From NCBI GenBank assembly GCA_947374705.1, contig CANCDA010000001.1:1-37655 (forward strand): a DNA stretch of 37,655 nucleotides. Direction: 5' to 3'. The DNA comes from Comamonadaceae bacterium. GTDB taxonomy: Bacteria > Pseudomonadota > Gammaproteobacteria > Burkholderiales > Burkholderiaceae_C. Positions 2,419 through 24,702 of this stretch are shown piece after piece. The stretch's first letter is position 1. Every line of letters starts with the position of its first letter. Both the position numbers and the translations under genes were made by a program. Below the pieces are notes generated by a model. That model did no database searches. It worked only from the letters and a program-made list of their open reading frames with translations, and was not told the origin of the DNA.

Positions 2419-2464
2419 TCTGTTTTTTTTCGTGTTGCAAGACTTTTACCTAAAGGAGACATCC

Positions 2465-3793: not shown

Positions 3794-3796
3794 TGG

Positions 3797-3890
3797 CTTA
3801 ACCCCTTCCCCCGCTGGGGGAAAGTAGGGATGGGGGCTTCTTCGTGCGCTGGCCCCCACCCCAGCCCTCCCCCAGTGGGGGAGGGAGGCA
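3797..3890. repeat. REP-like GC-rich intergenic element with two C/G-tract hairpins
   Basis: TTCCCCC(3806-3812)/GGGGGAA(3816-3822) forms one hairpin. A perfect 9-bp stem CCCTCCCCC(3865-3873)-AGT-GGGGGAGGG(3877-3885) forms the second. Both lie in a 173-nt non-coding gap inside an otherwise tight operon. Confidence 0.6.
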
Positions 3891-3966
3891 GAAACTGCGG
3901 CTCTCACGAGCCGCCAATGCAAAGGTCGGCACGCCCTGCCTTTCCATTGGTAAACACAGCAAACTT

Positions 3967-4776: not shown

Positions 4777-4784
4777 GAGGTTCA

Positions 4785-6099: not shown

Positions 6100-7074
6100 A
6101 TGAAACGCTTGCTGGTACTGGCCGCTGCTGCGGCAACATTGGGCGCTTATGCCCAAACGGCCTTTCCCACCAAACCCATCACCATCGTGGCGACCTTTGC
6201 CGCGGGTGGCCCGGTGGACCGTGTGGCCCGTGACTTGGCCGAGGCCCTGCGCAAGCCCTTGAATGGTGCAGTTATTCTGGTGGACAACGTAGTGGGTGCG
6301 GCAGGCTCCATCGCCGCCAACAAGGTGGCCAAAGCCAACCCGGACGGCTACACCCTGATGCTCAACCACATCGGCATGGCCACCATGCCCACCTTGGTGC
6401 GCAACATCCCCTTCAAGGTGGAGAGCGACTTTGAATACTTGGGCGTGGTGTCTGAAAACCCCATGACCTTGATCGCCAAGCCCCAGATGGCGGCCAACAA
6501 CTTTGCCGAGCTGCGCAAGTGGATCAATGACAACAAGAGCAAGGTCAACCTGGGCAATGCCGGTGTGGGCTCAGCCTCGCATTTGTGCGGGCTGCTGTTG
6601 CAAAGTGCGTTGGGTGTGGACATGACCACCGTGCCCTACAAAGGCACGGCCCCGGCCATGACTGACCTGATCGGCGGCCAGATCGACCTGCTGTGCGACC
6701 AGACCACCAACACCTCCAGCCAGATTGAAGGCAAGAAAGTCAAAGCCTACGCCGTGACCACGGCCAAACGCCTGACCACACCTGCCCTCAAAGACCTGCC
6801 CACGCTACAAGAAGCCGGTTTGAAAGGCGTTGAGGTCACGATCTGGAACGCCGTGTACGCCCCCAAAGGCACGCCGCCTGACGTGCTGGCCAAACTCAGC
6901 GCTGCCATCAAAGCCGCCGTGAAAGACCCCGAGTTCATCAAAAAGCAAGAAGGCCTGGGCGCAGTGGCAATTTCCGACAAGCGCGTGGAGCCTGCCGAAC
7001 ACAAGAAATTTGTGCAGGCAGAGATCGCCAAGTGGAGCCCCATCATCAAAGCCGCAGGCGTTTACGCCGACTGA
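6100..7074 (+). CDS. Bug/TctC-family tripartite tricarboxylate transporter substrate-binding protein
   Basis: Signal peptide MKRLLVLAAAAATLGAYAQ, then the family hallmarks FPTKPITIV..FAAGGP.D..AR, NPDGYTL and VPYKG. RBS CGGAG upstream. Confidence 0.92.
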   Translation: MKRLLVLAAAAATLGAYAQTAFPTKPITIVATFAAGGPVDRVARDLAEALRKPLNGAVILVDNVVGAAGSIAANKVAKANPDGYTLMLNHIGMATMPTLVRNIPFKVESDFEYLGVVSENPMTLIAKPQMAANNFAELRKWINDNKSKVNLGNAGVGSASHLCGLLLQSALGVDMTTVPYKGTAPAMTDLIGGQIDLLCDQTTNTSSQIEGKKVKAYAVTTAKRLTTPALKDLPTLQEAGLKGVEVTIWNAVYAPKGTPPDVLAKLSAAIKAAVKDPEFIKKQEGLGAVAISDKRVEPAEHKKFVQAEIAKWSPIIKAAGVYAD

Positions 7075-7158: not shown

Positions 7159-8181
7159 ATGCACAACTCAAACAACACAACCCGTCACCAGATTCGCCGC
7201 CGCCAAGCCCTGCTGGTTGGCGCCACTACCGCTTTAAGCTTGGCCCTGCCCGTGACAGCTCAAAGCACGTGGCCTAACCGCCCCGTCAAAATCGTCGTGC
7301 CCTTTGCACCTGGCGGCACCACCGACATCTTGGCCCGCGCCATGGCCCCGGAGCTCTCACGCGCCTTTGGCCAATCCTTCATCGTTGAAAACCGTGCCGG
7401 AGCCGGGGGTAACCTGGGTGCGGACGTGGTCGCCAAATCGCCCGCCGATGGCTACACATTGCTCATGGGCACGGTGGGCACGCACGGCATCAACAAGGCC
7501 TTGTATGACAAGATGCCCTTTGATCCGATCAAAGATTTTGCCCCCATTACCCTGGTGGCCGGTGTGCCCAATGTGATGATCGTCAATGCCGAGAAGGCGC
7601 GCAGCATGGGCATCAACAATGTGCTCGACTTCATCCGCGTGGCCAAGGCCAACCCGGGCAAGCTGAACATGGCGTCCAGCGGCAACGGCACTTCTATCCA
7701 CCTGGCGGGCGAGCTGTTCAAAAGCATGTCCGGCACCTTCATGCTGCACTTCCCCTACCGGGGCTCCAGTCCGGCCTTGCTGGACATGCTGGCAGGCACG
7801 ATGGACGTGATGTTTGACAACCTGCCCTCCAGCATGCCGCACATCAAAAGCGGCAAGCTCAAGGCGCTGGCCGTGACCAGCGCGCAGCGCTCGGCCGCGT
7901 TGCCGGACGTGCCCACCATCGAAGAAGCCGCCAAGCTCAAGGGCTATGAAGCCAGCAGCTGGTTTGGCCTGTTGGCCCCGGTGGGCACACCGCCTGACAT
8001 CGTGAACCGTATTCAGCAGGAAGTGGCCAAGTCACTCAACACCCCGGCCATCAAAGAAAAACTGCTGGCCCAAGGCGCTATTCCCGGTGGCAACACACCG
8101 CAGGAGTTTGCCAAGATGATCGACGCGGAACACAAAAAATGGGCGCAGGTGGTGAAGGCGTCTGGGGCAAAGGTGGATTAA
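7159..8181 (+). CDS. Bug/TctC-family substrate-binding protein
   Basis: [23 protein letters not shown] signal region. Contains [33 protein letters not shown] and FPYRGS. Confidence 0.92.
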
Positions 8182-8209
8182 GTCAACCCGATGGGGTGGT
8201 GTGATGGAC

Positions 8210-8256
8210 AATTCGCCGCCGGGCCGCCCCAAGGCGAATTAGCCCCCTCGGGGGGC
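8210..8256. repeat. REP-like double hairpin between convergent genes
   Basis: AATTCGCC(8210-8217)/GGCGAATT(8233-8240) forms an 8-bp stem. GCCCCC(8242-8247)/GGGGGC(8251-8256) follows immediately. Confidence 0.55.
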
Positions 8257-8293
8257 AGAAAGCTACACGCAGTGAGCGAACGCGGGGGCCACT

Positions 8294-8629
8294 TCACACA
8301 CCCCAGACGATGGGCTCTCCCGCCTTCTCGCAGCGGCGCAGCATCTCGATCATCGGCACGGCGCGTTGACGCAGGCTGATGCCTTCCAACCGGGGTGGCG
8401 TTTCACCTCGACTCAACGCGGCCTCCTGGGCCGCTTTTTGCTGCGTCTCTTCCTGAACAATCGCCGCCTCCAGCGCGCTGATGGCGGCAGGCATGTCTTG
8501 CGGCAACACAATGCCTTTATCGCCCGCAGGCGCGGCGGTTTCCTTGCCCATGATGGACAACATGCGCTGACCGTTGGGCTGCAACATGATCAGGTCGGCG
8601 GCGGCTTTGGATTTGAATTTGTAGAGCAT
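8294..8629 (-). CDS. DUF1840 domain-containing small protein
   Basis: 111-aa ORF beginning MLYKFKSKAAADLIMLQPNGQRMLSIMGKE, which matches my memory of the conserved DUF1840 N-terminus of betaproteobacteria. Confidence 0.8.
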   Translation of the reverse strand: MLYKFKSKAAADLIMLQPNGQRMLSIMGKETAAPAGDKGIVLPQDMPAAISALEAAIVQEETQQKAAQEAALSRGETPPRLEGISLRQRAVPMIEMLRRCEKAGEPIVWGV

Positions 8630-8750
8630 GGGTCAGAAGTAGCTGGTATTTCACGAATTCTCTCCCTCAAGCACGCTGCGTTGTCGCGCCTGGGTTCGAG
8701 TGTTGGGCGCACGCATCTCTGCGCAGGCTGGATCCAGTGCCTTTTGGGGC

Positions 8751-9998
8751 TTAGATGTTCATCTCAAGAATATACAAGCCACCCGTGAACCGGTCTACCG
8801 TGTACACGATACGGTTTTCATCCACAAACACATCGTTGAGTTGGATCGCACCGGCGGGCGAGAGCTTGGGTGCGCCGGGGACGTAGTAGGCGATCTCTTG
8901 CACGGCGAAAGGGTTGCTGGTGTCATAGACGCGCACACCGGCGTTGAAGAAGGTGCCGACGATGATCGTGTCAGACCGGAACGAGCCCGGCCCCGGCAGG
9001 TTCTCGTGCAGGTTGTGCGCGCCAAAGCGGCCACCGCGTTTGGCAAAGGCTTCCACCGGCGGCGCGGGGAAGGTGCTGATGGGCACGGGGTTGGCCTCGT
9101 TGCGCGCGTCCACCACCCAGACCAGCTTGGGCCAGTCAGCGCCGTTGTCCAGCACGCATTCATCGCTCACGATCCACAGGCCGCGCTCTTTCAGTGGCAG
9201 CACGGTGTGGGTGAAGCCGTTGAAGGGCGGCGAGTGGTTCCACTTGGAGACCACCTTGATGTGGCTCAGGTCGCTGATGTCGAGCACCAGCGCGCCGCCG
9301 TCGATGTAGCCGACGTAAGCGCGGTCGGGTTGATCGGGGAAGACGTTGGTGTTGTGGGTGCGAAAACCCATGTCAAACGGCGCGGGTAAGCGCGGTGGCG
9401 GCGGGGCGCTATCGCCCACGCGCGTGCCGGGGTACCACCAGCGGCCCACCTCCACCGGCTTGGACAAGTTGGAGACATCCAGGATGCGGTAGAACTGATC
9501 GTCCAGCGGATTTGTCGGCACAAAGTCGCCCGAACCGGCGGACATGTGGATGGTTTTGCCATCGACAAACCACACCGCGTGCACACCGCGCGAATGTGGG
9601 CCGGAGCAGTCAAAGTGCGAGATGAGGCGCGGTGACTCGGGCGTGCTGATGTCAAACAAATCCACCCCGGCAGGCTTGAGGCCCACGACCTGGGTTTGGT
9701 AAGCCACGGCCATGATGTCGCCCACCACGTCCAGCGAGTTGGAGCGCACCTTGGCGTGCGGCAAGTCGGTCTGCACGATGAGCTTGGGCTTGCGCGGGTC
9801 GGTCACATCCACGCCTGAGAAATTCTTCGGCGCACCCTCATGCGCCAGCCACATGATGCGGCGGCCATCGCTGGTGAGCTGCATGGCCATGCCCTCGCCC
9901 AAACCACCAAAGCCAGCCAGCTCGTGCTGGGCCAGCAGCTTCATATTGAGAGACAAAGTTTGGTCGGCACGACCGGCCGGTTGCGGTGCTTGAAACAT
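8751..9998 (-). CDS. LVIVD-repeat beta-propeller protein, no signal peptide
   Basis: 415-aa ORF with repeated strand motifs (VGYIDGGALVLDISD, GGLYILEMN, GVDLFDIS, YRILDVSN) typical of LVIVD/COG5276 propellers. The ATG overlaps the stop of the upstream TctC gene (TAATG). Confidence 0.75.
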   Translation of the reverse strand: MFQAPQPAGRADQTLSLNMKLLAQHELAGFGGLGEGMAMQLTSDGRRIMWLAHEGAPKNFSGVDVTDPRKPKLIVQTDLPHAKVRSNSLDVVGDIMAVAYQTQVVGLKPAGVDLFDISTPESPRLISHFDCSGPHSRGVHAVWFVDGKTIHMSAGSGDFVPTNPLDDQFYRILDVSNLSKPVEVGRWWYPGTRVGDSAPPPPRLPAPFDMGFRTHNTNVFPDQPDRAYVGYIDGGALVLDISDLSHIKVVSKWNHSPPFNGFTHTVLPLKERGLWIVSDECVLDNGADWPKLVWVVDARNEANPVPISTFPAPPVEAFAKRGGRFGAHNLHENLPGPGSFRSDTIIVGTFFNAGVRVYDTSNPFAVQEIAYYVPGAPKLSPAGAIQLNDVFVDENRIVYTVDRFTGGLYILEMNI

Positions 9999-10987
9999 TA
10001 CTCACCCTTGATGTTGTTGTCTGCCACCAGCTTGGCGTACTTGGCGTGCTCGACCGCCAAAAAGGCTTTGAAATCTTCTTGCGAACTGGACAATGCATCC
10101 ACCCCCAGGCCTGCGAATTTTTCTTTCAGATCGGGATCGGCCATGATTTTGACGATGGCTGCGTGGTAATTGTCCACCACCGCCTTGGGCGTACCAGCGG
10201 GCAGGTACACGCCCCACCAGTTGACAGCGGCCAAGGGCAAGCCTGCCTCGGTGAATGTGGGAATGTCAGGGTACAAGGGCGAACGCGCTGCACTGGTGAT
10301 GGCCAGCGCGCGCAGACGACCGGTCTTGATGTGCTGCGACACCGGCAAGGCGTCCGACACCAGCATGTGCAAGTGCCCGGCCAGCACATCGTTCACCGCC
10401 AGAATGCCGCCCTTGTAGGGAATAGCGACGAGCTTGACGCTGGCCTGACGCATGATCATCTCCCCCGCCAGGTGCGACATGCTGCCCGGGCCACTGGTGC
10501 CAAAGTTGATGGCACCGGGTTTGGTGCGAGCAGCCGCCACCAACTCGCTCAGTGTTTTGTAGGGTGAGTTGGCGGGCACGACCAAGATGTTGGGGCCAGT
10601 CGCCACCAGAGAGACGGGGACAAAGTCCTTGTCCATGTTGTAAGGCACTTTGTTGATCAGCGGGTTAACCGCTGCGGGGCCCAGGTTGCCAATCACGAAG
10701 GTGTAGCCATCGTTGGGCTGGCGCGCGGCAAACTCCATGCCGATGGAGCCTGCCGCTCCGGGTTTGCTCTCGATCACCACCGGTTGACCCCAGACCTCGC
10801 TCATCTTTTGACCCATGATGCGGGCCAGCAAATCGGAGCTGCCGCCTGCGGGGTAGGTCACGATGAGTTTGACGGGGCGATTGGGGAAAGATTGGGCTTG
10901 CGCGGGGGCTTGTGCCACGCACAAAGCGGCGAGCAGCACCGCACTGCCTTGAACCACTGACTTCAAAAGTTGGAACGCTTGCTTCAT
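9998..10987 (-). CDS. Bug/TctC-family substrate-binding protein
   Basis: Signal peptide ending AQAPAQAQ. Contains FPNRPVKLIVTYPAGGSSDLLAR, PNDGYTFVIG and IPYKGG. RBS AAGGAGA upstream. Confidence 0.92.
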   Translation of the reverse strand: MKQAFQLLKSVVQGSAVLLAALCVAQAPAQAQSFPNRPVKLIVTYPAGGSSDLLARIMGQKMSEVWGQPVVIESKPGAAGSIGMEFAARQPNDGYTFVIGNLGPAAVNPLINKVPYNMDKDFVPVSLVATGPNILVVPANSPYKTLSELVAAARTKPGAINFGTSGPGSMSHLAGEMIMRQASVKLVAIPYKGGILAVNDVLAGHLHMLVSDALPVSQHIKTGRLRALAITSAARSPLYPDIPTFTEAGLPLAAVNWWGVYLPAGTPKAVVDNYHAAIVKIMADPDLKEKFAGLGVDALSSSQEDFKAFLAVEHAKYAKLVADNNIKGE

Positions 10988-11022
10988 GTCATCTCCTTGG
11001 GTTGAGTGAACGTCAAAAATTC

Positions 11023-12159
11023 TTAAGCTTTGATCTTCAGCAGCTTCATGGCATTGAGGCCTTCAATCTGGCGACGCTGATCGGCAGGCAGGCGCTTGAC
11101 GGCGCGGATCAAACCCAAGGGGTCGTCTTCACCCATGTCGTAGGGGTAATCCGTGCCCAGCAAAACATGGTCGGCGCCGTAGCGGTCGATCAGGTTTTTG
11201 AGCATCGCCGGATCGAAGGTGATGGTGTCAAAGTAAAACTTTTCCAGGTAGCTGGAGGGCTTGCGCTTGATGACAGTGCGGCAGTCGGGGCGGGCTTTCC
11301 AGGCGTGGTCCATGCGGGCCCAGTAGTGGGCGATGAAGCCGCCGCCGTGCGCGGCGATGAACTTGATCTTGGGGTTGCGCTGCACCACGCCGTCAAAGAT
11401 CAAATGACTGACCGCGATAGTGGTGTCCAGCGGGTTGCCGATGACGTTGTTGAAGTAGTGGTTTGTCAAGCGCTCGCCTTGGGTGAAGCCCAGCGGGTGC
11501 ATGAAGATCACCACGCCCAGCTCATTGGCTTTGGCAAAAAACTTTTCCAACCCGAGCTTGGGATCGGTCAGGTTCAGGCCGTTGACGTTGGTGTTGATCT
11601 CCACACCCTTGAGGCCGAGTTTTTTCACCGCGTACTCCAGCTCTTGCACCGCCAGCTCGGCGTTTTGCAAGGGCACGGAGCCCATGCCGACAAAGCGGTC
11701 CGGGTGCGCCGCCACCAGCGCGGCAATGCCTTCGTTCACCTCACGCGCCAGGCTGGCACCGAGGTCGGGCTCGGTGAAATAAAAGTAATGGTAGGGCGCG
11801 GGGCACACGGCCTGGATGTCCACGCCCATGCGATCCATATCGGCCATGCGCTGCTCGATGCCCATGAGCTTGGGCGCGCGGTCTTTCATTTGCTTGACGT
11901 TGGTCTCATTCGTCAAGGCGTTGGCATAGGTGACCGTGGGGTCGTACTTGGCGGCGTTGAGGTGGGCGGTCTTTTGGTTCACCACCGGGTTCAGGTAGTG
12001 GCAGTGGATGTCCACGATCTTGGATTTTCCCTTGCTGTTTTTGACAATGGTTTGCGTCTTGGCCACGGGCTTGGCGCGGGTGGCGGCTTGGCTGGTCGCG
12101 CTGGGCTTGGCGTGGTTGTGGGTGGGGTCAGAGCACTGGGGGGAGCAGGTGTAAAACAT
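11023..12159 (-). CDS. Amidohydrolase-2 (ACMSD/LigW/LigI-type metal-dependent decarboxylase or lactonase) family protein with an approximately 45-aa N-terminal extension
   Basis: VDIHCHY (HxH metal motif), AAHGGG and LLGTDYPYDMGE (catalytic Asp region). ATG 12159 has AGGA 6 nt upstream, overlapping the LLM stop. Confidence 0.85.
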   Translation of the reverse strand: MFYTCSPQCSDPTHNHAKPSATSQAATRAKPVAKTQTIVKNSKGKSKIVDIHCHYLNPVVNQKTAHLNAAKYDPTVTYANALTNETNVKQMKDRAPKLMGIEQRMADMDRMGVDIQAVCPAPYHYFYFTEPDLGASLAREVNEGIAALVAAHPDRFVGMGSVPLQNAELAVQELEYAVKKLGLKGVEINTNVNGLNLTDPKLGLEKFFAKANELGVVIFMHPLGFTQGERLTNHYFNNVIGNPLDTTIAVSHLIFDGVVQRNPKIKFIAAHGGGFIAHYWARMDHAWKARPDCRTVIKRKPSSYLEKFYFDTITFDPAMLKNLIDRYGADHVLLGTDYPYDMGEDDPLGLIRAVKRLPADQRRQIEGLNAMKLLKIKA

Positions 12160-12168
12160 GGTGAGTCC

Positions 12169-13257
12169 TTATCGTTGAATGGCGGCGTTAACGCGGGGCA
12201 TGACTTCGGTAGCAAACAGTTCCATGGAGCGCTGGCCCAGGGCCGGGTCCATCCAGTCGTGGCAGGCGTAGAGCAGGTTGCCGAAGTCACCCACGTGCTC
12301 GCGAAAGGCCAGTATCTGATCGACGACGGAATTCACTGTACCGGCCAGCACCAATTTCTGGGTCACAAAATCCGGCGTGACCTCGCTGTCGGGCATGGCT
12401 TGGTCGGTCTTGAACAGGTTGCTGCGCCCGCCACCCACCAGTTTGCGCACCAGTTGCTTGAAGTAGAAGTGGTAGGGCCCACCCTCTTCCAACGCGTAGC
12501 GTTTGGCGGTGGCTTCGTCGTCTGCCACGAAGATGCTTTTGGCCACGCGCCACTCAGCAGGTGAGGCCACCGCGCCCACCGCAGCGCGCCCCTCCACATA
12601 ATTGGGCCAATGGGTTTTGACCCACTCCGGCATCAGGAAGTTGGCCGATATGGGTTGCCAGCCGCGCTTGGCCATCTCGGTCACGCCCTTGGAAAACGGG
12701 GCCACCGCTGTGCCCACGATGAGCGGGTGCGGCCTTTGAAACGGCTTCATGATGAAGCCCTGACCGATCTCTGGGATCATGGTTTTGGCGACTGTGGTGT
12801 TCCAGAACTGACCCTCGATGTTGTAGGGCGGCTCAGACTCCCAAATTTTCAAAATCGTGTTGATGCTCTCCACAAACATGGCGTTGCGGTCTTTGCCAAA
12901 GTTGCCAAACAGCTCGGCGTCCGACATCAAGCCGCCGGGGCTGATGCCCATGATGAAGCGCCCTTGCAGCAGGTGGTCCAGCATGGCCGCGTTGGCCGCA
13001 ATGGCGGCGGGGTGCGAGTTGGGCAGGTTGAGTGTGCCGGTGCCCAGCATGATTTGTTTTGTTTCAGCAATCAGGCTGGCCAGGAAGATCATGGACGAGG
13101 TGACGGTCTCGGCCGCGTCGGTGACGTGTTCGCCCACATAGGCCTCGCTGTAGCCCAGTTGATCTGCCAGGATCACGGCCTTTCGGTCTTCTTGCAGGGT
13201 CTGACTGATGTTGCGCCCGGGCGGGTGCAGGGGCATCATGAACATGCTGTATTTCAT
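12169..13257 (-). CDS. LLM-class (luciferase-like) flavin-dependent monooxygenase
   Basis: MKYSMFMMPLHPPGR...LGYSEAYVGEH is a typical LLM N-terminus. ATG 13257 has GAGG 9 nt upstream. The track start 13272 is a TTG without an RBS. Confidence 0.85.
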   Translation of the reverse strand: MKYSMFMMPLHPPGRNISQTLQEDRKAVILADQLGYSEAYVGEHVTDAAETVTSSMIFLASLIAETKQIMLGTGTLNLPNSHPAAIAANAAMLDHLLQGRFIMGISPGGLMSDAELFGNFGKDRNAMFVESINTILKIWESEPPYNIEGQFWNTTVAKTMIPEIGQGFIMKPFQRPHPLIVGTAVAPFSKGVTEMAKRGWQPISANFLMPEWVKTHWPNYVEGRAAVGAVASPAEWRVAKSIFVADDEATAKRYALEEGGPYHFYFKQLVRKLVGGGRSNLFKTDQAMPDSEVTPDFVTQKLVLAGTVNSVVDQILAFREHVGDFGNLLYACHDWMDPALGQRSMELFATEVMPRVNAAIQR

Positions 13258-13288
13258 CGGGGCAATCCTCAAACGTTAGGTGTGATTT

Positions 13289-14221
13289 TTAAAAATTGAC
13301 TTGGTCTGCGCCTTTGAGCGCGAGCATCTGACGGGCCTCCGCAGGCGTGGCAATTTCCAGCGATAGGCCTTCAAGAACTTGGCGAATTTTTCGCACCTGC
13401 GCGGCGTTGGATTCGGCCAACTGGCCTGGCCCAATCCAGAGCGAATCTTCCAGTCCCACGCGCACATTCGCGCCTTGCGCTGCACCCAAGGTGGCCAGGG
13501 GAATCTGGTTGCGGCCTGCGCCCAAAATCGACCACACAAAGTCTTTACCAAACAATCGGTCGGCGGTGCGCTTCATGTGCATCAGGTCTTCGGGGTGCGC
13601 GCCAATGCCGCCCAGCAAACCGAATACGCTTTGCACGAAGAAAGGCGGCGTGGCGAGTTTTCGATCCACAAAATGCGCGAGGTTGTAGAGGTGCGAAATG
13701 TCGTAGCACTCAAACTCAAAGCGCGTGCCATTGGCGGTGCAGGAGGTGAGCACAAACTCGATGTCGGCAAAGGTGTTTTTAAACACCAGGTCGCGGCTGT
13801 TCTCCAGGTGTGTGCGCTCCCAGGCGTGCTTGAATTCCTTCTGCCGCTCCAACATTGGGTACAGGCCAAAATTCATCGAACCCATGTTGAGCGAGGCCAG
13901 TTCCGGCTTGTAGTGGTGCGCCGGGCGCAGCCGCTCGGCCACGGTCATGTGCGGGCTACCACCGGTGGTGATGTTGATGACGGCGCTGGTCTTTGCTTTG
14001 ATCTCGGGCAAGAACTGCGCAAAGGCCGCGGGGTCTTGCGTGGGGCGACCGTCTATAGGGTCACGCGCATGAAGGTGAATGACCGCCGCGCCCGCCTCGG
14101 CCGCACCAATCGCCGCAGCAGCCACCTCGTCGGGCGTGACCGGCAGATGCGGCGACATGGAAGGCGTGTGGATCGCGCCTGTCACGGCACAGGTGATGAT
14201 GACTTTGCGGGCTTGGGCCAT
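13289..14221 (-). CDS. 3-keto-5-aminohexanoate cleavage enzyme family (BKACE/DUF849) beta-keto acid cleavage enzyme
   Basis: N-terminus KVIITCAVTGAIHTPSMSPHLPVTPDEVA..A..AGAAVIHLHARDP.DGRPT is the BKACE signature. 310 aa is the typical size. Confidence 0.88.
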   Translation of the reverse strand: MAQARKVIITCAVTGAIHTPSMSPHLPVTPDEVAAAAIGAAEAGAAVIHLHARDPIDGRPTQDPAAFAQFLPEIKAKTSAVINITTGGSPHMTVAERLRPAHHYKPELASLNMGSMNFGLYPMLERQKEFKHAWERTHLENSRDLVFKNTFADIEFVLTSCTANGTRFEFECYDISHLYNLAHFVDRKLATPPFFVQSVFGLLGGIGAHPEDLMHMKRTADRLFGKDFVWSILGAGRNQIPLATLGAAQGANVRVGLEDSLWIGPGQLAESNAAQVRKIRQVLEGLSLEIATPAEARQMLALKGADQVNF

Positions 14222-14263
14222 GATTGAACCTGAGAGAAAGTGAAAAGAAAAGCGAGGCGAAAA

Positions 14264-15043
14264 CTACATCGCCCCGGCCACACCCGCACGTGCCAACAAG
14301 CCCGCGTCATTGACCGACAAATCACTGCCCATGAGGTCTTTCGGCATGGTGTCGGCCAGCCAAGCGAGCAGGCCTGCGGACACGCTGGGTGGCGCGAGTT
14401 TTTCTTGTGGAATGCGGCTGATCTCGTTCACACCCTGGGCGCGGATCAAGCCTTGCATGGCGGTGTCGACCAAGCCCGGTTGCAGGCTATAGACCGAAAG
14501 CCCTTTTTTGCCATATTCATTGAGAACAGAACGGCTCAACATCAGCAAACCCGCTTTCGAGGTGCAATACGCTGACCACCCATCACGCGGCGTGTGGGCT
14601 GCGCCGGTGGAGACATTCAGAACGACGCCCTTGCGCTTCAACAACTCGGGCAACGCGGCGTGGATGACGTTGTACGGGCCGACCAGATTGACCTGCATGG
14701 CGTGCGCCCACTGGGCGGGGTCGGTCTGCGCCAGCGGCGCTTGCGGCTCGATCTGGCCTGCGTTATTAATGACGATGTCGATGCGCCCCCAGGCCTTGAG
14801 CACGCTGGCCACACAGCGCTGAACTGAGGCGTATTCCGCCACGTCGCAGACCTCGATGCGGCACGCCACACCCAGAGTGCTCACGGCGTCTGCTGCGGCT
14901 TGTGCCGCCTGCGGGTCACGCACGGCCAGCACGGGCGCTATGCCTTTTTGCGCTAAGGCCAAGACGGTGGCCGCACCAATGCCGCGTGCCGCACCGGTGA
15001 CCAGCGCGACACGCCCCGTGGGCAAGGCAGCGTTGGTGTTCAC
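14264..15043 (-). CDS. SDR-family oxidoreductase
   Basis: VALVTGAARGIG (TGxxxGxG), NNAG and the catalytic YCTSK (YxxxK). The GTG start overlaps the upstream stop (GTGA). Confidence 0.9.
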   Translation of the reverse strand: MNTNAALPTGRVALVTGAARGIGAATVLALAQKGIAPVLAVRDPQAAQAAADAVSTLGVACRIEVCDVAEYASVQRCVASVLKAWGRIDIVINNAGQIEPQAPLAQTDPAQWAHAMQVNLVGPYNVIHAALPELLKRKGVVLNVSTGAAHTPRDGWSAYCTSKAGLLMLSRSVLNEYGKKGLSVYSLQPGLVDTAMQGLIRAQGVNEISRIPQEKLAPPSVSAGLLAWLADTMPKDLMGSDLSVNDAGLLARAGVAGAM

Positions 15044-15483
15044 GACAGTGGGTTGCCGGTGTCCGGCACCAAACCCGCAGCCTGGACACCCGCGACCGAG
15101 CAGATTTCATCGTTGTCCGACGTGTCACCTGAGATGCCCACAGAGCCGATGATTTGCCCTGCCGCGTTGCGGATCAACACGCCACCGGCCACAGGCACCA
15201 TGCGGCCATTGGACATGGCGTTCAAGGCGGTGAAGAAGGTCGGCACTTTCTCGGCGCGGCGCGATAACTCGCGCCCACCGAACCCCATGCCCAGCACGCC
15301 CCAGGCCTTGCCAATGGCAATCTCCGGGCGCAGCAGGCTGCAGTCGTCTTCACGCAGCAGTGCCTTGAGTTGACCGCCGGCGTCCAGCACGGCCACGGTG
15401 AGGGGGGCGAAGTTGAGGGCGCGGCCTGCTTTAAGAGCCTGGGCGGCGATGAGTTGGGCTTGGTCTAATGAAATTGAGTTCAC
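15040..15483 (-). CDS. GlcG/HbpS-like (DUF336) haem-binding-fold protein
   Basis: SLDQAQLIAAQALKAGRAL...VAVLDAGG...GGVLIRNAAGQIIGSVGISGDTSDNDE is a typical DUF336 pattern. I prefer GTG 15483 (AGGA 8 nt upstream). The alternative GTG 15507 abuts a REP hairpin and has no RBS. Confidence 0.8.
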   Translation of the reverse strand: MNSISLDQAQLIAAQALKAGRALNFAPLTVAVLDAGGQLKALLREDDCSLLRPEIAIGKAWGVLGMGFGGRELSRRAEKVPTFFTALNAMSNGRMVPVAGGVLIRNAAGQIIGSVGISGDTSDNDEICSVAGVQAAGLVPDTGNPLS

Positions 15484-15510
15484 TATTAAGTTCCTATTGG
15501 GCAGCACTGG

Positions 15511-15530
15511 ATTCCCGCCTGCGCGGGAAT
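15511..15530. repeat. REP-type perfect hairpin ATTCCCGC-CTGC-GCGGGAAT
   Basis: 8-bp perfect inverted repeat with a 4-nt loop, 7 nt downstream of the dehydrogenase stop. On the plus strand it translates to the spurious 'SRLRGNDG' peptide known from repeat-derived ORF calls in betaproteobacteria. Confidence 0.7.
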
Positions 15531-15536
15531 GACGGG

Positions 15537-16436
15537 TTATTTAGATTCGGTCTTGGTACTCGCACGCAAATGCCGCGCCCACTCTTCCAGCACATCGCAC
15601 ACGGCGGCCGTGTCCTGGTTGCCCAGGCCCTTGGCCATGGCGGCGGTGTAGTAAGCGGCGGAGGCGGCCAGCAGCGGCGTGGGGCAATCCAGCTTGGTGG
15701 CGTACTCGCTGATGATCTTCATGTCTTTCTGCCAGATCGACACCTTCATACCGGCGGGCTCGTACACGCCCTCCACCATCATGGGGCCGCGCACCTGGAA
15801 CATGCGCGAGCTGCCTGCGCCGTCGCCGATCACTTTGTAAATCATGGCCGGATCCAGGCCCGCCTTCATACCCAGCACAAAAGCTTCGGCGGTGGAGACG
15901 TTGTGAATCGCCACCAGCAGGTTGGCCACATATTTCATCTTGCTGCCGTTGCTGAACTCGCCCACATAGTGGTGTGAGCGCGCAAAGCCGTCAAACACGG
16001 GAATGCAACGCTGCACCGCCGTCTCATCACCGCTGGCATAGACCGACAAGTCCTTGGTTAGCGCTTGCGCGCCAGTGCCGCTCAAGGGGCAATCCAGCAT
16101 GGTGATTTGAGAGCCACAACGTTCGCGATTGCGTTCTTTATCTTCAATCGGCAGGGTGCTGGATTCAATCAGGATCAAGCCCTGGCGGCCCGAGGCCAGC
16201 AGGCCGCTGACGCCCTCGTCCAGCGCCTTGACGCTGGGCAGCACGCTGACGATGATGTCCGCCTTCTCGGCCACCTCACGCTGCGAACTGACGACCTCAC
16301 CACCGGCCTGTTTGAAGTCGGCCAAGCGCCCCGCATCCACATCAAAACCCACGACCCTGAAGCCCGCTTTGAGCATATTGCCCGACATGGCCGAGCCCAT
16401 GATGCCCAAGCCCAAAATTCCGACTGTGATTTGCAT
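15537..16436 (-). CDS. NAD(P)-dependent 3-hydroxyacid dehydrogenase (3-hydroxyisobutyrate/6-phosphogluconate dehydrogenase-like family)
   Basis: N-terminal Rossmann motif GILGLGIMGSAM. 299 aa, with the family-typical C-terminal helical domain. RBS GAGGAAG. Confidence 0.88.
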   Translation of the reverse strand: MQITVGILGLGIMGSAMSGNMLKAGFRVVGFDVDAGRLADFKQAGGEVVSSQREVAEKADIIVSVLPSVKALDEGVSGLLASGRQGLILIESSTLPIEDKERNRERCGSQITMLDCPLSGTGAQALTKDLSVYASGDETAVQRCIPVFDGFARSHHYVGEFSNGSKMKYVANLLVAIHNVSTAEAFVLGMKAGLDPAMIYKVIGDGAGSSRMFQVRGPMMVEGVYEPAGMKVSIWQKDMKIISEYATKLDCPTPLLAASAAYYTAAMAKGLGNQDTAAVCDVLEEWARHLRASTKTESK

Positions 16437-16466
16437 TCTTTCTTCCTCAAAAATTAAAGCTGGTTT

Positions 16467-17651
16467 TTAGTGTGTACGTCCGCGCATAGCTGCGGGGTGC
16501 CCCGGCAGCGTCAATGACTTGCCGGTGTTGACAATCTGGTCGCCGTCCACGCGCAGGATGGAGATGTCGCTGTCCATGAAATTGCCCACGTAGATGTAGC
16601 GCCCGTCCTGGCTGAACACTGCGCCTTCGGGCAGGCCGCGCACCTCCACTTCATTGCTGCGCGTGACTTTTTTGCCGTCGATTTTGAGCGCGACCACGGT
16701 GGCATTGCGGTTATAGAAGAAGGCCGACTTGGCCACGTTGGTGCCGCGCAGCAGAACGGCCACCGCAAGTTTGCCGGTGGGGCTGATGGCCAGGCCTTCG
16801 GGCGCATCGCCCACCACCACTTTGTCGATCACACGGGGTGGATTGGCTTCGATATCAATCACGCTGACCGTGTCCACATGCCCATCTGCTGCACCCGCGT
16901 TGCCGTTGTCCGCACTCAAGGCGAGCTTGCCGTCGGGGGTGACGTCCACGTTATAGGGCCACAGCCCCACGGTGACATCGAGCTTGTTGTACGTGACCTT
17001 CTCGCCATCCACATTGAGCATGGCGATTTTGTGACCGGGGAACTTGGCCGCCAAGGCGCGCTTGCCGTCTGGCGTGAAGCGCACGTGCGCGACCTGCTCG
17101 CCCATGGCCACGGTGTCGATCAGCTCCACTTTTTTGCCGCTGATGCGCAACACGCTGATGGAATTGTCGGTGCGGTTGGCAATGAGCGCCAGCGTGCCTG
17201 CAGCGTTGATGGACATGCCCGAGGGCTGCTTGCCCACGGCCAGGGTCTGGATGACGGCTGGCGGGTTGGCGCTGAGGTCAATCACGAACAGGCGGTTGTC
17301 GGGCACCAGCTTGCGCACACCATTTTCTGTGACCATGTTCATGGAGTTAGCGACCAGCGCCAAGCCCTCGTCAGGGGTGATGGCCAAGTTGACGGGTGGC
17401 CCGGCAATGGTGTTGGGAATGGGCAGGTTGGCGATGATCTTGGGGGCCAGCGGGTCGGTGCCGATGTCGAGGATGGACACCGTGTCCCTGCCCGCGTCGG
17501 ACAGGATGACCTTGCCGGCATCATCCCAACTTTGCTTTTCATCATTGGCCACCAGCATCAGCTCGCGCTTACCGGGCGGGGGCGACATGTTGGCGCAACC
17601 CGCAAGAAGGGCCAAACCTGAGAGGACGGCAGTGGCAATACGCAAGTTCAT
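16467..17651 (-). CDS. Lipoprotein, YVTN/YncE-like seven-bladed beta-propeller
   Basis: Lipobox LALLAGC at residues 13-19. Repeated blades read DG...A....N..ISV(L/I) (for example NSISVLRIS, DTVSVIDIE, SDISILRVD). Confidence 0.8.
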   Translation of the reverse strand: MNLRIATAVLSGLALLAGCANMSPPPGKRELMLVANDEKQSWDDAGKVILSDAGRDTVSILDIGTDPLAPKIIANLPIPNTIAGPPVNLAITPDEGLALVANSMNMVTENGVRKLVPDNRLFVIDLSANPPAVIQTLAVGKQPSGMSINAAGTLALIANRTDNSISVLRISGKKVELIDTVAMGEQVAHVRFTPDGKRALAAKFPGHKIAMLNVDGEKVTYNKLDVTVGLWPYNVDVTPDGKLALSADNGNAGAADGHVDTVSVIDIEANPPRVIDKVVVGDAPEGLAISPTGKLAVAVLLRGTNVAKSAFFYNRNATVVALKIDGKKVTRSNEVEVRGLPEGAVFSQDGRYIYVGNFMDSDISILRVDGDQIVNTGKSLTLPGHPAAMRGRTH

Positions 17652-17833
17652 GGTGAGACCTTTTAAGAAGAATTCCGCCGAATGTAACTCTCTTCCCCCC
17701 TCTAAAAATAGCCCACAAGGGTTTAACCCTATGCTGATTTTCAGACGCGCTTTTACTATTCAGCGATCTTCATTCTGACAGCCCACTGCGCGCTGCATAT
17801 GAGAAAAATTCAACCCCTAGAGACACAGACATC

Positions 17834-18907
17834 ATGACCCAACACAACCAGACCCCAGACACCACACCCGAAGGCTCACGCCGGGGTTTTCTCGCCAGCA
17901 CCGCTCTCGGCGCGGTGGCGGCCACCACGGCCGCATTGAGCACAACGCCCGCGCAAGCCCAAGCCACCCGCGCAGCCCCCACGGCTGAGATCGTCGGCAA
18001 AGAACACTGGGCCATCAAGAAGGTGGCCGGGCAAGACGTGCGCTTGTTCATGTGGAACAAAAAACTACGTAACCCCAGCGCCGCACCGTCGCGCGGCACA
18101 CTTATTTTTGTGCATGGCTCCTCGGTGTCATCGACCCCGGTGTTTGACTTGCAAATCCCCGGGCGCATTGAGGCTTCCACCATGGACTGGTTCGCGCGAC
18201 TGGGCTACGACACCTGGTGCTTTGACTGCGAGGGCTATGGCCGCTCTGACAAAACCCGCAACATGAACGCCACCATCGCTGACGGCGCCGACGACATCAC
18301 GGTGGTGAGCGAATACATCCTGAAGACCTCGGGCAGCAAAAAAGCCTTGTTCTACGGCTCATCCTCCGGCGCATTGCGAGCCGCCCTGTTTGCGCAGCGC
18401 CACCCCGAGCGCGTGTCCCGCTTGGCGCTGGATGCCTTTGTGTGGACGGGCGAAGGCAGCCCCACCCTGGCCGAGCGCAAAAAGAAACTCGACGTGTACC
18501 GCGCCAGCAACCGCCGCCCGATTGACCGCACCATGATCCGCAGCATCTTCACGCGAGACCACCCCGGCACCAGCGACCTGACCATCGTGGACGCTTTTGC
18601 CGACGCCGTGCTGGCCCTGGACACATCCGTGCCCACCGGCACCTACATCGACATGTCGGCCAACCTGCCCGTGTGTGACCCGGAAAAACTCAAAGTGCCC
18701 ACGCTCATCATGCGCGGCGAGTACGACGGCATAGCCAGTCTGCAAGACTTGACCAATTTCTTCGCCAAACTCCCTAACGGCGACAAACAGTTCATCGTCA
18801 TGCCCGGCATTGCGCATACCAGCACAAGGTCTAAAAACTTTGCGTTGGTGTACCACTTGCTAGAGGGGTTTTTCAGCCAGCCGGAGCCGGTTTATACGGG
18901 GGCGTGA
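17834..18907 (+). CDS. Tat-exported alpha/beta-fold hydrolase
   Basis: Twin-arginine signal SRRGFLASTALGAVAATTAALSTTPAQA. Oxyanion-region FVHGSS, nucleophile elbow GSSSG, and late PGIAHT (catalytic His region). Confidence 0.82.
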   Translation: MTQHNQTPDTTPEGSRRGFLASTALGAVAATTAALSTTPAQAQATRAAPTAEIVGKEHWAIKKVAGQDVRLFMWNKKLRNPSAAPSRGTLIFVHGSSVSSTPVFDLQIPGRIEASTMDWFARLGYDTWCFDCEGYGRSDKTRNMNATIADGADDITVVSEYILKTSGSKKALFYGSSSGALRAALFAQRHPERVSRLALDAFVWTGEGSPTLAERKKKLDVYRASNRRPIDRTMIRSIFTRDHPGTSDLTIVDAFADAVLALDTSVPTGTYIDMSANLPVCDPEKLKVPTLIMRGEYDGIASLQDLTNFFAKLPNGDKQFIVMPGIAHTSTRSKNFALVYHLLEGFFSQPEPVYTGA

Positions 18908-18984
18908 TCTTCTCTTGGATTCAGGACGTCTGCGTTAACATCGACGCCACTTCAAGATCAGCTCCCTTGCGCGGAGTTAGCCCC

Positions 18985-19524
18985 ATGAACACTATTGCCA
19001 CGACCGGTGAGGGTGCTGAAAAAGCAGCCCAACTGCTCATCGTTCCCACTGCCCTGATTCAACTCACGCTGGAAGAAGCGCGCGTGGTGGTCAACTACAT
19101 GACGCCGCGCTTCATTGCGGCTGACACCACTTTCATCCGCGAGGGTGACACGGGCGATGGCGGTTTTATGGTGCTGGTGTTAGAGGGCGAAGTGGTCGTG
19201 GAGAGCATCACCGTCAGCCGCACAGAACCCCTGACCATCAAGGTACTGGGGCCAGGCAGCCTGATTGGCGAAGTCGGCCTGATGGACAAAGAACCCCGCT
19301 CGGCCTCCTGCACGGCCAGCACCCCACTGTACTGCGCCATCCTGAGCCGCGCCGCGCTGGAGAAACTATTGGCCGATAACCCCCAGGTAGGTGCCAAGCT
19401 GCTGATGGCGATTTCTACCTTGCTGGCCCAGCGCCTGCGTGACAACGCCCGTAAATTGCGGCTCTACGCCAATCTGGCCACCGTCATGCAAAAAGAAATC
19501 GACAGCTTCACACGGCCTCAATAG
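18985..19524 (+). CDS. Stand-alone cyclic-nucleotide-binding (CAP effector) domain protein without a DNA-binding domain
   Basis: GGAG lies 8 nt before ATG 18985. Phosphate-binding-cassette-like GEVGLMDKEPRSASCTA. 179 aa with no HTH after the C-helix. Confidence 0.78.
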   Translation: MNTIATTGEGAEKAAQLLIVPTALIQLTLEEARVVVNYMTPRFIAADTTFIREGDTGDGGFMVLVLEGEVVVESITVSRTEPLTIKVLGPGSLIGEVGLMDKEPRSASCTASTPLYCAILSRAALEKLLADNPQVGAKLLMAISTLLAQRLRDNARKLRLYANLATVMQKEIDSFTRPQ

Positions 19525-21104
19525 CACTCAATCTGAACCGCACTCTTCTGCGCGGCCGCCACCATGTCGCCCACGCTGGCCGGGTTGTTGCTGACAGTGC
19601 CCAGGGCGTAGTCCACCGAATGGGCGTCTAAAAAACTCTGCACGGTGGCCAGGTTGATGCCGAAGTTCACATTTTGCGCATTCGCCGCACTAGTGGACAG
19701 CAGCCGCGCGCGCACGATGCCCACCAGCAAACCGCTGCGGTCAAACACCGGCCCACCGCTGGAGCCTGGCTGCACGGTGGCCGACATCTGGAAGGCGGAG
19801 GTGTCGTTGTTGGCCCCGCTCATGGCGTTGACAATGCCCATGGTGACGATGGGGCCCGACGACAGCATGCCGCGCAGCGGGTAGCCAATGGCCACCACAT
19901 CGTCGCCCAGGCGCAAACCGCGCCCACTGCGCAGGCGAACCGGCGCGATGCTGCCACCCTGCAAGCGCAACAAGGCCAGGTCGTTCTTGGCGTCTTTGGC
20001 CACCAGTTTGAGCGGCCACGCGCCCGGTTGCGCACGGAGGTTGGCGCAGTTGTTGATGACGTGCTCGTTGCTCACGATGTCCCCCGCCGCGCTCACCACC
20101 ACGCCGCTGCCATAAACGCCACGCCGGATGGTGGGCGCGATACCGGGGCTGCCCGCCATGCCGGGCAAGGTGCTGATCACGGTTTGTGCCACCACGGTCT
20201 TGGCCAGTTTGTCGGCCTCGGCCAGTTCCTGAGCTGACAGGGTTTTGCTCAGGCGCTCTTTGCCATCCAGCGCCGCTTTGAGCGTGGCCGCAGGCGCGCG
20301 CGCAGGCATGACCTGGTACCAGGCATGAGCCAGTGCGGGGTTGCGGGCCACACCGCCCCGCCCAAATTCATACACGCTGCCCATCCACAAATAAGCCGAC
20401 GTGCTGCCCGCCGTCACGCCGCGCTGCAACCATTTCAGCGCTTCGGGGCCATCGGCCACCACACCTTTGCCCAAGGCATAAAACCGCCCCACTGCGGCCA
20501 TGGCCTCGGCGTGGCCCAGCTCCCCAGCCCGCTTGTACTGGTCCAGCGCTTGCAGGTTGTCTTGGGGCATGCCGCCCAGCGCGGTCTCGGCAAAGTAGCC
20601 CAACCAGTACAGCGCGGTAGGGTCTTTTTTATCCGCCGCTTGGTTGAACCAGCTCTGCGCCACGGCCTCATCCTTGGGGTAGCCCTGGGCACCGGTGGCT
20701 ATCCAGATGCCCAGCAGGGATTGCGCAGGCGCATAGGCCTGGTCAGCGGCCTGCTTGACCAGCTCTACGCCCTTGGCGGCGTCCCGCGTCACCAAGTTGC
20801 CGCTCAGCATCATCAGCCCGAGTTGGTAGGTGGCGCGCAAACTGCCACCCGCCTGCGCACGGGTGATGTAGTCGCGCGCTTTGAGCTCGTCGCGTGTGCC
20901 GCCCAGGCCGCGCATCAGCATCTCGCCCAGATAGGCCATGGCCTCGGGCTGGCTCTCCTCGGCCAGAGGCGTGAACTCTTTGCGGGCCTCCACATACTGG
21001 CGTTTGTCAAAGGCGTCGCGGCCCTCTTCCATGCCCGCCATGGCCGCGCCGCTCACCAGCACATTGATAGCAGCAACCCAGGCAAAGATGAGCCGCTGTG
21101 ACAT
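19518..21104 (-). CDS. Secreted Sel1-repeat (TPR-like) / trypsin-like serine protease (S1 family) fusion protein
   Basis: Signal peptide [23 protein letters not shown]. It has about 6-7 Sel1-like units (A..YLG.M...G.G...D...A..W). The C-terminal protease domain carries SNEHVINNC (His), NDLALLRL (Asp) and GSSGGPVF (Ser). Confidence 0.85.
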   Translation of the reverse strand: MSQRLIFAWVAAINVLVSGAAMAGMEEGRDAFDKRQYVEARKEFTPLAEESQPEAMAYLGEMLMRGLGGTRDELKARDYITRAQAGGSLRATYQLGLMMLSGNLVTRDAAKGVELVKQAADQAYAPAQSLLGIWIATGAQGYPKDEAVAQSWFNQAADKKDPTALYWLGYFAETALGGMPQDNLQALDQYKRAGELGHAEAMAAVGRFYALGKGVVADGPEALKWLQRGVTAGSTSAYLWMGSVYEFGRGGVARNPALAHAWYQVMPARAPAATLKAALDGKERLSKTLSAQELAEADKLAKTVVAQTVISTLPGMAGSPGIAPTIRRGVYGSGVVVSAAGDIVSNEHVINNCANLRAQPGAWPLKLVAKDAKNDLALLRLQGGSIAPVRLRSGRGLRLGDDVVAIGYPLRGMLSSGPIVTMGIVNAMSGANNDTSAFQMSATVQPGSSGGPVFDRSGLLVGIVRARLLSTSAANAQNVNFGINLATVQSFLDAHSVDYALGTVSNNPASVGDMVAAAQKSAVQIECY

Positions 21105-23501: not shown

Positions 23502-23503
23502 GG

Positions 23504-24679: not shown

Positions 24680-24702
24680 GGTGTGTCCTTTTTGAAGAAG
24701 GG

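Follow-up and report, generated by a model that had tools for sequence, protein, structure and literature searches.

The window analyzed here is a stretch of 37,655 nucleotides (positions 1 to 37,655 of contig CANCDA010000001.1, assembly GCA_947374705.1) from a Comamonadaceae bacterium. It contains, on the minus strand, a run of nine closely spaced genes that we call, in the order of transcription, YVTN, HIBADH, GlcG, SDR, BKACE (β-keto acid cleavage enzyme), LLM, Amhy2 (amidohydrolase-2), TctC, and LVIVD (Table 1). In the original prediction, which was made from the sequence alone, the run was taken to be one catabolic operon bracketed by two β-propellers, in which an LLM monooxygenase, an amidohydrolase, two dehydrogenases, and BKACE act one after the other. 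Based on comparison with other genomes, we describe the run instead as a lineage-specific mosaic, consisting of a six-gene set that recurs in other Burkholderiales, an inserted SDR-BKACE pair, and a bystander (YVTN), with a mechanism that is proposed below. This is the reading we prefer, with confidence evenly balanced between its being right and its being wrong.

Table 1. Genes of the run, in the order of transcription, and the divergent neighboring gene
Feature	Position	Strand	Size	Distance to next gene of the run	Remarks
YVTN, YVTN/YncE-like lipoprotein propeller	16467-17651	-	394 aa	30 nt	
HIBADH, HIBADH-family β-hydroxyacid dehydrogenase	15537-16436	-	299 aa	29 nt	
GlcG, GlcG/HbpS-like (DUF336)	15040-15507	-	155 aa	-4 nt (GTGA overlap)	
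SDR, classical SDR	14264-15043	-	259 aa	42 nt	Widest gap of the run
BKACE	13289-14221	-	310 aa	16 nt; 31 nt with LLM start at ATG 13257	
LLM, LLM monooxygenase	12169-13272 (TTG ORF); 12169-13257 (from probable ATG)	-	367 aa (TTG ORF)	9 nt	
Amhy2, ACMSD subfamily	11023-12159	-	378 aa	35 nt	
TctC, TctC/Bug-type periplasmic carboxylate-binding protein	9998-10987	-	329 aa	-1 nt (TAATG overlap)	
LVIVD, LVIVD β-propeller	8751-9998	-	415 aa		
α/β hydrolase, Tat signal	17834-18907	+			Divergent from the run; Pfam Hydrolase_4/Abhydrolase_1; N terminus SRRGFLAS...AQA

Layout of the nine-gene run

The list of open reading frames (ORFs) bore out all nine minus-strand genes at the predicted coordinates, and every product scored above the Pfam gathering threshold for the family that had been assigned to it. 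The tight packing was also found, including the GTGA and TAATG overlaps and the gaps of 9 and 30 nt, but the widest gap is 42 nt and not 53 nt as had been predicted. Within the nine genes, a Pfam scan turned up neither a flavin reductase nor a CoA ligase nor a regulator of a classical type, again in agreement with the prediction. The LLM gene probably starts at the ATG at 13257 and not at the TTG at 13272. Every alignment with an orthologue begins at this ATG (MKYSMF...), and a GAGG-like ribosome-binding site is present upstream.

As far as a single transcript is concerned, the genes all run in one direction, with two overlaps and no gap wider than 42 nt, yet the run also contains a weak hairpin and a REP-like palindrome. 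The hairpin, a terminator-like stem with a T-tract, is found at 14253-14276 on the minus strand, where the SDR gene stops and the gap to BKACE begins. Its signal is weak (z = -1.5), and terminator-like sites are overall about as numerous as expected by chance; the hairpin is possibly an internal attenuator or a seam between modules. The palindrome at 15512-15529, in the spacer between HIBADH and GlcG, is perfect (ATTCCCGC-GCAG-GCGGGAAT), and its motif, TTCCCGC-NNNN-GCGGGAA, gave 1 match versus 0 expected. The motif recurs at 9740-9765 in L001, one of the comparison loci from other genomes and metagenomes (labeled L001 to L110), where it is part of a noncoding insertion of about 500 nt between SDR and BKACE. 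The palindrome looks like a REP-type element placed at module seams. An Rfam scan of the whole window revealed no riboswitch or other RNA family.

Conservation of the 10.15-kb block

A scan for BKACE, with one genome per species, yielded more than 537 relatives, and we examined the best 80 of these (69 to 98% identity). The nine-gene arrangement was kept in only two of these 80 loci, L001 and L002, both from Comamonadaceae metagenome-assembled genomes (MAGs). Their proteins are 93 to 98% identical to those of the window, with TctC at 81 to 82%, and the divergent α/β hydrolase is 95 to 96% identical. At the nucleotide level, the similarity between the window and these loci is 88 to 90% and spans exactly 8755-18903, from the stop of LVIVD to the stop of the α/β hydrolase, or 10.15 kb with ten genes. 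The similarity ends sharply at both positions, and the flanks common to L001 and L002 differ from those of the window; therefore, the 10.15-kb block acts as a relocatable unit. Terminal repeats, insertion sequence elements, or an integrase were not found at its borders.

In the 78 other BKACE loci, the remaining eight genes have no orthologue-level relative in the vicinity; what is present there are distant members of the SDR and TctC families (26 to 36% identity) and a single LVIVD relative with 29% identity. The fact that BKACE orthologues from 78 species (69 to 88% identity) occur without close relatives of the other eight genes points to a mosaic structure. The BKACE-anchored loci show that the gene order is not conserved beyond L001 and L002, and a single co-conserved nine-gene pathway is contradicted by synteny in just two MAG loci of 88 to 90% identity and in none of the 78 others. 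The statement that the combination matches no described pathway did hold, as our analysis did not turn up a described pathway of the same gene content either.

That all nine genes serve one pathway, leading from the LLM through Amhy2 and the two dehydrogenases to BKACE with both propellers as integral accessories, is unlikely in our opinion. Such a pathway would be consistent with genes that all point the same way, overlap twice, and are never more than 42 nt apart, with the conservation of the block as a unit in three MAGs (the window, L001, and L002), with a type II Baeyer-Villiger monooxygenase (BVMO) as the nearest relative of the LLM, and with the well-supported chemistry of BKACE. It is difficult to reconcile with the loss of gene order beyond genomes of 88 to 90% identity, with the unrelated neighbors of the YVTN orthologues, with the recurrence of six of the genes elsewhere without BKACE or SDR, and with an Amhy2 that resembles ACMSD and not LigI.

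YVTN is probably a bystander. It has a lipobox (LLAGC) and seven blades, and it matches the Pfam Lactonase family and the TIGR02276 repeat. Its orthologues (80 to 87% identity) have unrelated neighbors in three genomes (L100 to L102), and in one Herminiimonas MAG, BKACE (L003) and YVTN (L101) are on separate contigs. This suggests that YVTN is a conserved stand-alone gene that is not part of the pathway. The predicted pair of propellers bracketing the cluster therefore falls apart into YVTN, with its unrelated neighbors, and LVIVD, which is a core member of the recurring set and probably an enzyme.

A gene set that recurs in other Burkholderiales

Clusters anchored on the LLM were found in four independent contexts (L081; L082/L083; L084; L085/L086), with LLM proteins 85 to 89% identical to that of the window. 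Here, an Asp/Glu-racemase-like gene and a HIBADH gene are followed by divergent GFO/IDH/MocA, TetR, flavin reductase, and LLM genes, and after the LLM come a CocE/NonD hydrolase, a five-gene ABC transporter, an Amidohydro_2 protein, a second HIBADH, and the Fer2 and MoCoBD components of a Mo-hydroxylase. The Amidohydro_2 proteins are 77 to 83% identical to Amhy2 of the window, and the first HIBADH is 51% identical to its counterpart.

Five further contexts were anchored on LVIVD (L103, L104, L105/L106, L109, and L110; LVIVD 82 to 87% identical). In all five, a TctC gene (70 to 78% identity) is divergently adjacent to LVIVD and a CobW/COG0523 gene lies directly downstream of it. Four of these contexts have an LLM and its flavin reductase within 10 kb; for a HIBADH relative the count is likewise four, for Amhy2 three, and for GlcG (51% identity) one. 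The latter is L110, where the order is LVIVD, CobW, HIBADH, GlcG, and an FAA-family hydrolase. In the same locus (120-2519 and 7627-12109), a DksA-like gene and a second CobW gene precede TctC and the LVIVD-to-FAA hydrolase genes, which hints at a connection with metal limitation.

Based on these contexts, HIBADH, GlcG, LLM, Amhy2, TctC, and LVIVD can be considered one recurring, order-shuffled set, of which flavin reductase, CobW, and TetR are the usual extra members. In culture, Ramlibacter sp. PS3R-8 and R. alkalitolerans are candidate hosts of the core of this set. HIBADH contains the Pfam domains NAD_binding_2 and NAD_binding_11 and matches PDB entry 1vpd with 135 bits; its best NCBIfam matches, L-threonate dehydrogenase and tartronate semialdehyde reductase, were both under the cut-off. 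Relatives of it (51 to 56% identity) stand beside LLM/LVIVD sets in L081, L085, L103 to L105, and L110. GlcG (PF03928, 102 bits) appears to be an occasional member, given its homologue after LVIVD, CobW, and HIBADH in L110.

The accessory genes of other versions of the set encode a Mo-hydroxylase, a PuuE-like deacetylase, a PrpB-like lyase, an FAD hydroxylase, a VOC protein, an FAA hydrolase, and an IclR_C-reductase fusion. These hint at an aromatic or N-heterocyclic acid as the substrate, with none of them naming a compound. In the LLM-anchored clusters, the gene directly after the LLM is that of the CocE/NonD hydrolase, and LVIVD is absent from these loci of about 21 kb; in L103, a cluster that has LVIVD, it encodes a PcaD-like enol-lactonase (257.4 bits versus a cut-off of 255.85). 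The presence of a hydrolase after the LLM elsewhere suggests that the product of the LLM is hydrolyzed, as is the case in Baeyer-Villiger routes.

Identity of BKACE and its place beside the SDR

BKACE was predicted to be an acetyl-CoA-dependent β-keto acid cleavage enzyme, and the sequence comparisons argue strongly that it is a bona fide one. The protein matches PF05853 (361 bits) and, over 310 of its 310 residues, the NCBIfam equivalog NF053538 (3,5-dioxohexanoate:acetyl-CoA transferase) with 559 bits versus a cut-off of 430. Among solved structures, it aligns over its full length with the Burkholderia protein 3e49 (603 bits) and with BKACE15 of Paracoccus (8rio/8rip; 470 bits). It is 67 to 84% identical to the solved members and keeps the His-x-His motif in IHLHARD. 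The Paracoccus orthologue BKACE15 cleaves neutral C5-C6 β-keto acids, including 3,5-dioxohexanoate, and the natural role of this group was given as unknown (PMC11961710).

The window BKACE is nearer to those of Herminiimonas (88%) and Burkholderia/Caballeronia (81 to 83%) than to those of other Comamonadaceae/Limnohabitans (76 to 77%), which supports the mosaic. Elsewhere, the usual partner of BKACE is a lambda-crystallin-type (3HCDH-type) 3-hydroxyacid dehydrogenase, encoded directly upstream in 23 loci and not present in the window. Other frequent neighbors are an SDR that is not of the phloroglucinol reductase (PGR) type, a GntR regulator, and a transporter. The SDR of the window (adh_short, 163 bits) has generic PDB matches and is about 30% identical to the SDRs that adjoin BKACE elsewhere. 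In an SDR-anchored scan of the JGI metagenome collection, the best relative was 42% identical and the cluster genes were absent nearby. Together, these comparisons indicate that the SDR-BKACE pair was inserted between GlcG and LLM in this lineage specifically.

The equivalog match raises the question of whether the run is an aerobic variant of the phloroglucinol/triacetate pathway, as the phloroglucinol route of Clostridium ends in a BKACE that cleaves 3,5-dioxohexanoate (PMC10470551). The SDR would then be a phloroglucinol reductase, Amhy2 a trihydroxybenzoate decarboxylase or dihydrophloroglucinol hydrolase, HIBADH a 3-hydroxy-5-oxohexanoate dehydrogenase, and BKACE a triacetate acetoacetate-lyase. 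Apart from the equivalog, this would fit with the use of an SDR, a ring hydrolase, a dehydrogenase, and a BKACE by the Clostridium pathway (PMC10470551) and with the periplasmic esterase encoded next door. The Pfam scan of the window ORFs, however, revealed no cyclase-family DPGC, and there was no phloroglucinol reductase among the 60 best PDB matches or the 25 best NCBIfam matches of the SDR. Furthermore, the dehydrogenase is of the HIBADH type and not of the 3HCDH type, the usual BKACE neighbors are a lambda-crystallin-type dehydrogenase and a non-PGR SDR, and LLM, Amhy2, HIBADH, GlcG, TctC, and LVIVD co-occur elsewhere without BKACE. We consider this variant very improbable. As the principal interpretation it was rejected because the scan gave no hydrolase of the cyclase family, the best matches of the SDR show no specific similarity to PGR, and the remaining cluster genes recur without BKACE.

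It is also conceivable that the run reflects packing alone, with YVTN, HIBADH-GlcG-SDR, and BKACE-LLM-Amhy2-TctC-LVIVD (or BKACE by itself) being unrelated neighbors in a compact freshwater genome and BKACE acting on another substrate than the LLM branch. The hairpin in the SDR-BKACE gap, the REP-like palindrome in the HIBADH-GlcG gap, and the insertion of about 500 nt at the SDR-BKACE junction of L001 would agree with this, as would the fact that BKACE orthologues usually act together with a dehydrogenase of their own that is encoded next to them. We find this unlikely: the hairpin is statistically no different from chance, and the block is inherited as a unit. Moreover, HIBADH and GlcG share a set with LLM, Amhy2, and LVIVD across the SDR-BKACE pair, which places this insert inside the set.

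The LLM monooxygenase and Amhy2

The LLM, a luciferase-like TIM-barrel oxygenase (PF00296, Bac_luciferase, 136 bits), has 3,6-diketocamphane 1,6-monooxygenase (PDB 4uwm), a type II BVMO, as its closest solved relative, with 113 bits over residues 7 to 361. All 29 NCBIfam matches were far below the curated cut-offs. The original prediction left the choice between a Baeyer-Villiger and a hydroxylating enzyme; the nearest solved relative and the hydrolases adjacent to the LLM elsewhere may point to Baeyer-Villiger chemistry. Analogies of this LLM with the trigonelline (Tgn), pyridine (Pyr), and Rut systems are possible leads, which no NCBIfam equivalog supports.

LLM homologues of 83 to 89% identity are very common in metagenomes. 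In L081 to L086, L103 to L106, and L110, the LLM orthologues (71 to 89% identity) have a Flavin_Reduct gene directly upstream. The Pfam scan found no flavin reductase among the window ORFs, so that the reductase partner, whose lack within the cluster had been correctly predicted, must here act in trans. In Ramlibacter-type clusters, the flavin reductase that supplies the LLM carries a fused IclR_C domain for ligand binding (L103, 13514-14632; L104, 14425-15549). Such a fusion recalls the effector-stimulated reductase of p-hydroxyphenylacetate hydroxylase and could help to trace the substrate.

Amhy2 (PF04909) had been described as a lactonase or decarboxylase of the LigI, LigW, or ACMSD type. 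Its best PDB matches are ACMSD proteins, with 188 bits for the human enzyme and 149 bits for the next, and LigW, γ-resorcylate decarboxylase, and IDCase scored far lower. The metal ligands are kept, namely, the HxH in DIHCH, the His equivalent to H174, and the Asp equivalent to D291 of human ACMSD, as is the catalytic His (H224 in human ACMSD). The equivalent of Arg235 is also kept, the Arg51 region is ambiguous (RAP versus RP), and Trp188 is replaced by Tyr. Compared with ACMSD, the protein has an N-terminal extension of about 45 residues. Orthologues with 70 to 83% identity co-occur with the LLM. We therefore assign Amhy2 to the ACMSD decarboxylase type on the basis of these residues and matches, so that the decarboxylase half of the prediction is retained and the LigI lactonase half is dropped, as LigI was absent from the matches. 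The idea that Amhy2 hydrolyzes triacetic acid lactone, in the manner of the pyrone lactonase LigI, was likewise considered and rejected, the protein being ACMSD/LigW-like.

The LVIVD propeller and TctC

LVIVD (PF08309) has no signal peptide and no lipobox. Orthologues of 81 to 89% identity are widespread across genera and as common in metagenomes as the LLM homologues. A search of plasmids found only paralogues with 35% identity, in unrelated contexts (Rahnella, Erwinia, and Rhizobium), and nothing on the function of this protein was found in the literature. We built an AF2 model with 26 homologues (pLDDT 78.6, pTM 0.83). The top Foldseek match of this model is 5hrm, the phosphotriesterase of Sphingobium sp. 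TCM1 (Sb-PTE), with E = 2.5e-15 and a TMq of 0.67, whereas the E values of generic WD40 folds (~1e-10) are poorer by about five orders of magnitude. In a phmmer search of the PDB, 5hrm was also the sole sequence-level match (E = 1.3e-4). A large number of His, Asp, Glu, and Cys positions do not vary, although this applies only to homologues with 80% identity or more. The model suggests that LVIVD is a probable Sb-PTE-like, metal-dependent hydrolase of the cytoplasm. The presence of CobW next to LVIVD in all other contexts fits with a metalloenzyme that is loaded by a chaperone.

The same CobW linkage allows a different explanation, in which TctC-LVIVD(-CobW) is a module for limitation of zinc or another metal and the link with LLM and Amhy2 reflects a shared metal dependence. 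This would agree with the CobW/COG0523 gene directly downstream of LVIVD in five of five other contexts, with the DksA-like gene and second CobW gene nearby in L110 and the TonB receptor near L105's triad, with L109, which carries the triad without LLM or Amhy2, and with the unusually high conservation of LVIVD (81 to 89% across genera). The window itself has no CobW, though, and in five of six contexts the triad lies among catabolic enzymes. COG0523 proteins are also dedicated activators of single metalloenzymes, such as nitrile hydratase, which counts against a metal module. We therefore regard this explanation as improbable.

TctC (PF03401, 199.5 bits) has a signal peptide. The scanned ORFs of the window included no TctA or TctB membrane subunit, and the components of a tripartite (TTT) system are thus not all present. 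Four TctC/Bug-type genes lie within the 37-kb window (6100-7074, 7159-8181, 9998-10987, and 31196-32188), and these are orphan Bug-type receptors.

A proposed route and its significance

It is possible, and we propose this tentatively, that TctC, LVIVD, CobW, flavin reductase with LLM, the ACMSD-type enzyme, HIBADH, and GlcG form an undescribed route for a carboxylated cyclic compound that is widespread in freshwater and soil Burkholderiales, that LVIVD is a new chaperone-loaded metalloenzyme with the Sb-PTE fold and a physiological substrate, and that the lineage of the window has exchanged a hydrolytic C-C cleavage for the CoA-conserving cleavage by BKACE. A carboxylated cyclic compound (alicyclic, hydroaromatic, or heteroaromatic) would be bound by TctC and imported. 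The LLM, supplied with FMNH2 by a reductase whose gene lies in another part of the genome, would oxygenate it in a Baeyer-Villiger or ring-opening reaction, and the cytoplasmic LVIVD would open the ester or lactone produced. Amhy2, as an ACMSD-like enzyme of the Zn type, could then strip off the carboxyl group, after which HIBADH and/or SDR would convert the resulting 3-hydroxy acid into a 3-keto acid. Finally, BKACE would use acetyl-CoA to yield acetoacetate and a short neutral acyl-CoA, which would be acetoacetyl-CoA if the intermediate is 3,5-dioxohexanoate. In lineages without BKACE, an enzyme that cleaves C-C bonds or lactones by hydrolysis, such as the FAA-family hydrolase or the PcaD-like enzyme, may serve instead. 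The order of these steps is inferred.

Several observations weigh against the mosaic and the route built on it. The 4-nt overlap between GlcG and SDR and the small gaps argue, without proving it, that SDR and BKACE are functionally integrated, and a compositional test for recent acquisition of the pair revealed no anomaly in GC or GC3. The co-occurrence counts come from about ten independent contexts, one of which, L109, has LVIVD without LLM or Amhy2 within 10 kb. In the window the set is incomplete, as it is without flavin reductase, CobW, and TetR. The identity between LVIVD and Sb-PTE is 17%, and with Tyr in place of Trp188 and an ambiguous Arg51, Amhy2 might be a hydratase or hydrolase and not a decarboxylase.

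If the recurring set is a real pathway, it would provide the first physiological role for LVIVD-repeat propellers, of which the sole related solved enzyme degrades man-made organophosphates. It would also be the first physiological role for the large and highly conserved pair of LLM and ACMSD-type enzyme, which is common in freshwater Burkholderiales metagenomes, and it would give a metabolic context to BKACE enzymes of the 3,5-dioxohexanoate type. The tight packing of the run overstates its functional unity, and it was only by comparing genomes that core, insert, and bystander could be told apart. The novelty at the pathway level shrinks to a lineage-specific mosaic; the recurring set and the probable enzyme LVIVD are a worthwhile lead for enzyme discovery.

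Other genes of the window

The stop of the α/β hydrolase is overlapped by 4 nt by a plus-strand gene (18904-19524) for a protein of 206 aa with a cNMP-binding domain, which is absent from L001 and L002. No helix-turn-helix domain was detected in this protein, which may be a Crp-like regulator. It is followed on the minus strand (19518-21104) by a gene for a protein of 528 aa that combines Sel1 repeats and a trypsin-like serine peptidase domain in one chain. A second catabolic cluster, at 22470-31120, encodes a Zn-alcohol dehydrogenase, three acyl-CoA dehydrogenases, an enoyl-CoA hydratase, an SDR, and an AMP-forming ligase, and its predicted products resemble a β-oxidation-type route by which some unusual acid could be degraded. 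On the other side of the run, a plus-strand gene at 4764-6032 for a short AMP-binding protein of the phenylacetate-CoA-ligase type (422 aa) comes directly after a Liv-type ABC transporter (400-4776).

Comparison with known systems

Modules of a dehydrogenase and a BKACE are known from carnitine catabolism, lysine fermentation, and the 3E49/BKACE15 type. As in the window, a hydroxy-acid dehydrogenase is encoded upstream, and the chemistry would be the same, with a β-keto acid and acetyl-CoA giving an acyl-CoA and acetoacetate. Their lambda-crystallin/3HCDH partner, however, is replaced in the window by a nonorthologous SDR and a HIBADH-type enzyme, and the module of the window is embedded in an unrelated gene set. 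The phloroglucinol cluster of Clostridium scatologenes (PGR-DPGC-TfD-TAL; PMC10470551) likewise combines a BKACE at its end with an SDR and a hydroxy-acid dehydrogenase. The window differs in that it has no cyclase-family ring hydrolase, its SDR has generic best matches with no PGR among them, and its dehydrogenase belongs to another family, whereas the LLM, the ACMSD-type enzyme, LVIVD, GlcG, and TctC are extra. The predicted BKACE step is thus all that the two have in common, and the run does not belong to this pathway as judged from its gene products.

The individual enzymes show a similar picture. The camphor type II BVMO (4uwm) is a two-component enzyme, and the orthologues of the window LLM have a separate flavin reductase and a hydrolase gene next door, but its relation to the window LLM is distant (113 bits) and the window contains no reductase gene. 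Amhy2 and ACMSD have in common the residues that bind the metal, the catalytic His, and the equivalent of Arg235; the partners of the kynurenine and nitrobenzoate pathways are absent from the window, and Amhy2 is always linked to an LLM and not to a ring-cleaving dioxygenase. Sb-PTE (5hrm), the best structural match of LVIVD, is a seven-bladed propeller hydrolase with a binuclear Mn center. Compared with this enzyme of about 500 aa, LVIVD is shorter (415 aa), cytoplasmic, and linked to TctC and CobW and not to organophosphate metabolism. The cluster is best described as a set of known enzyme families in an undescribed combination, part of which is a widespread uncharacterized set.

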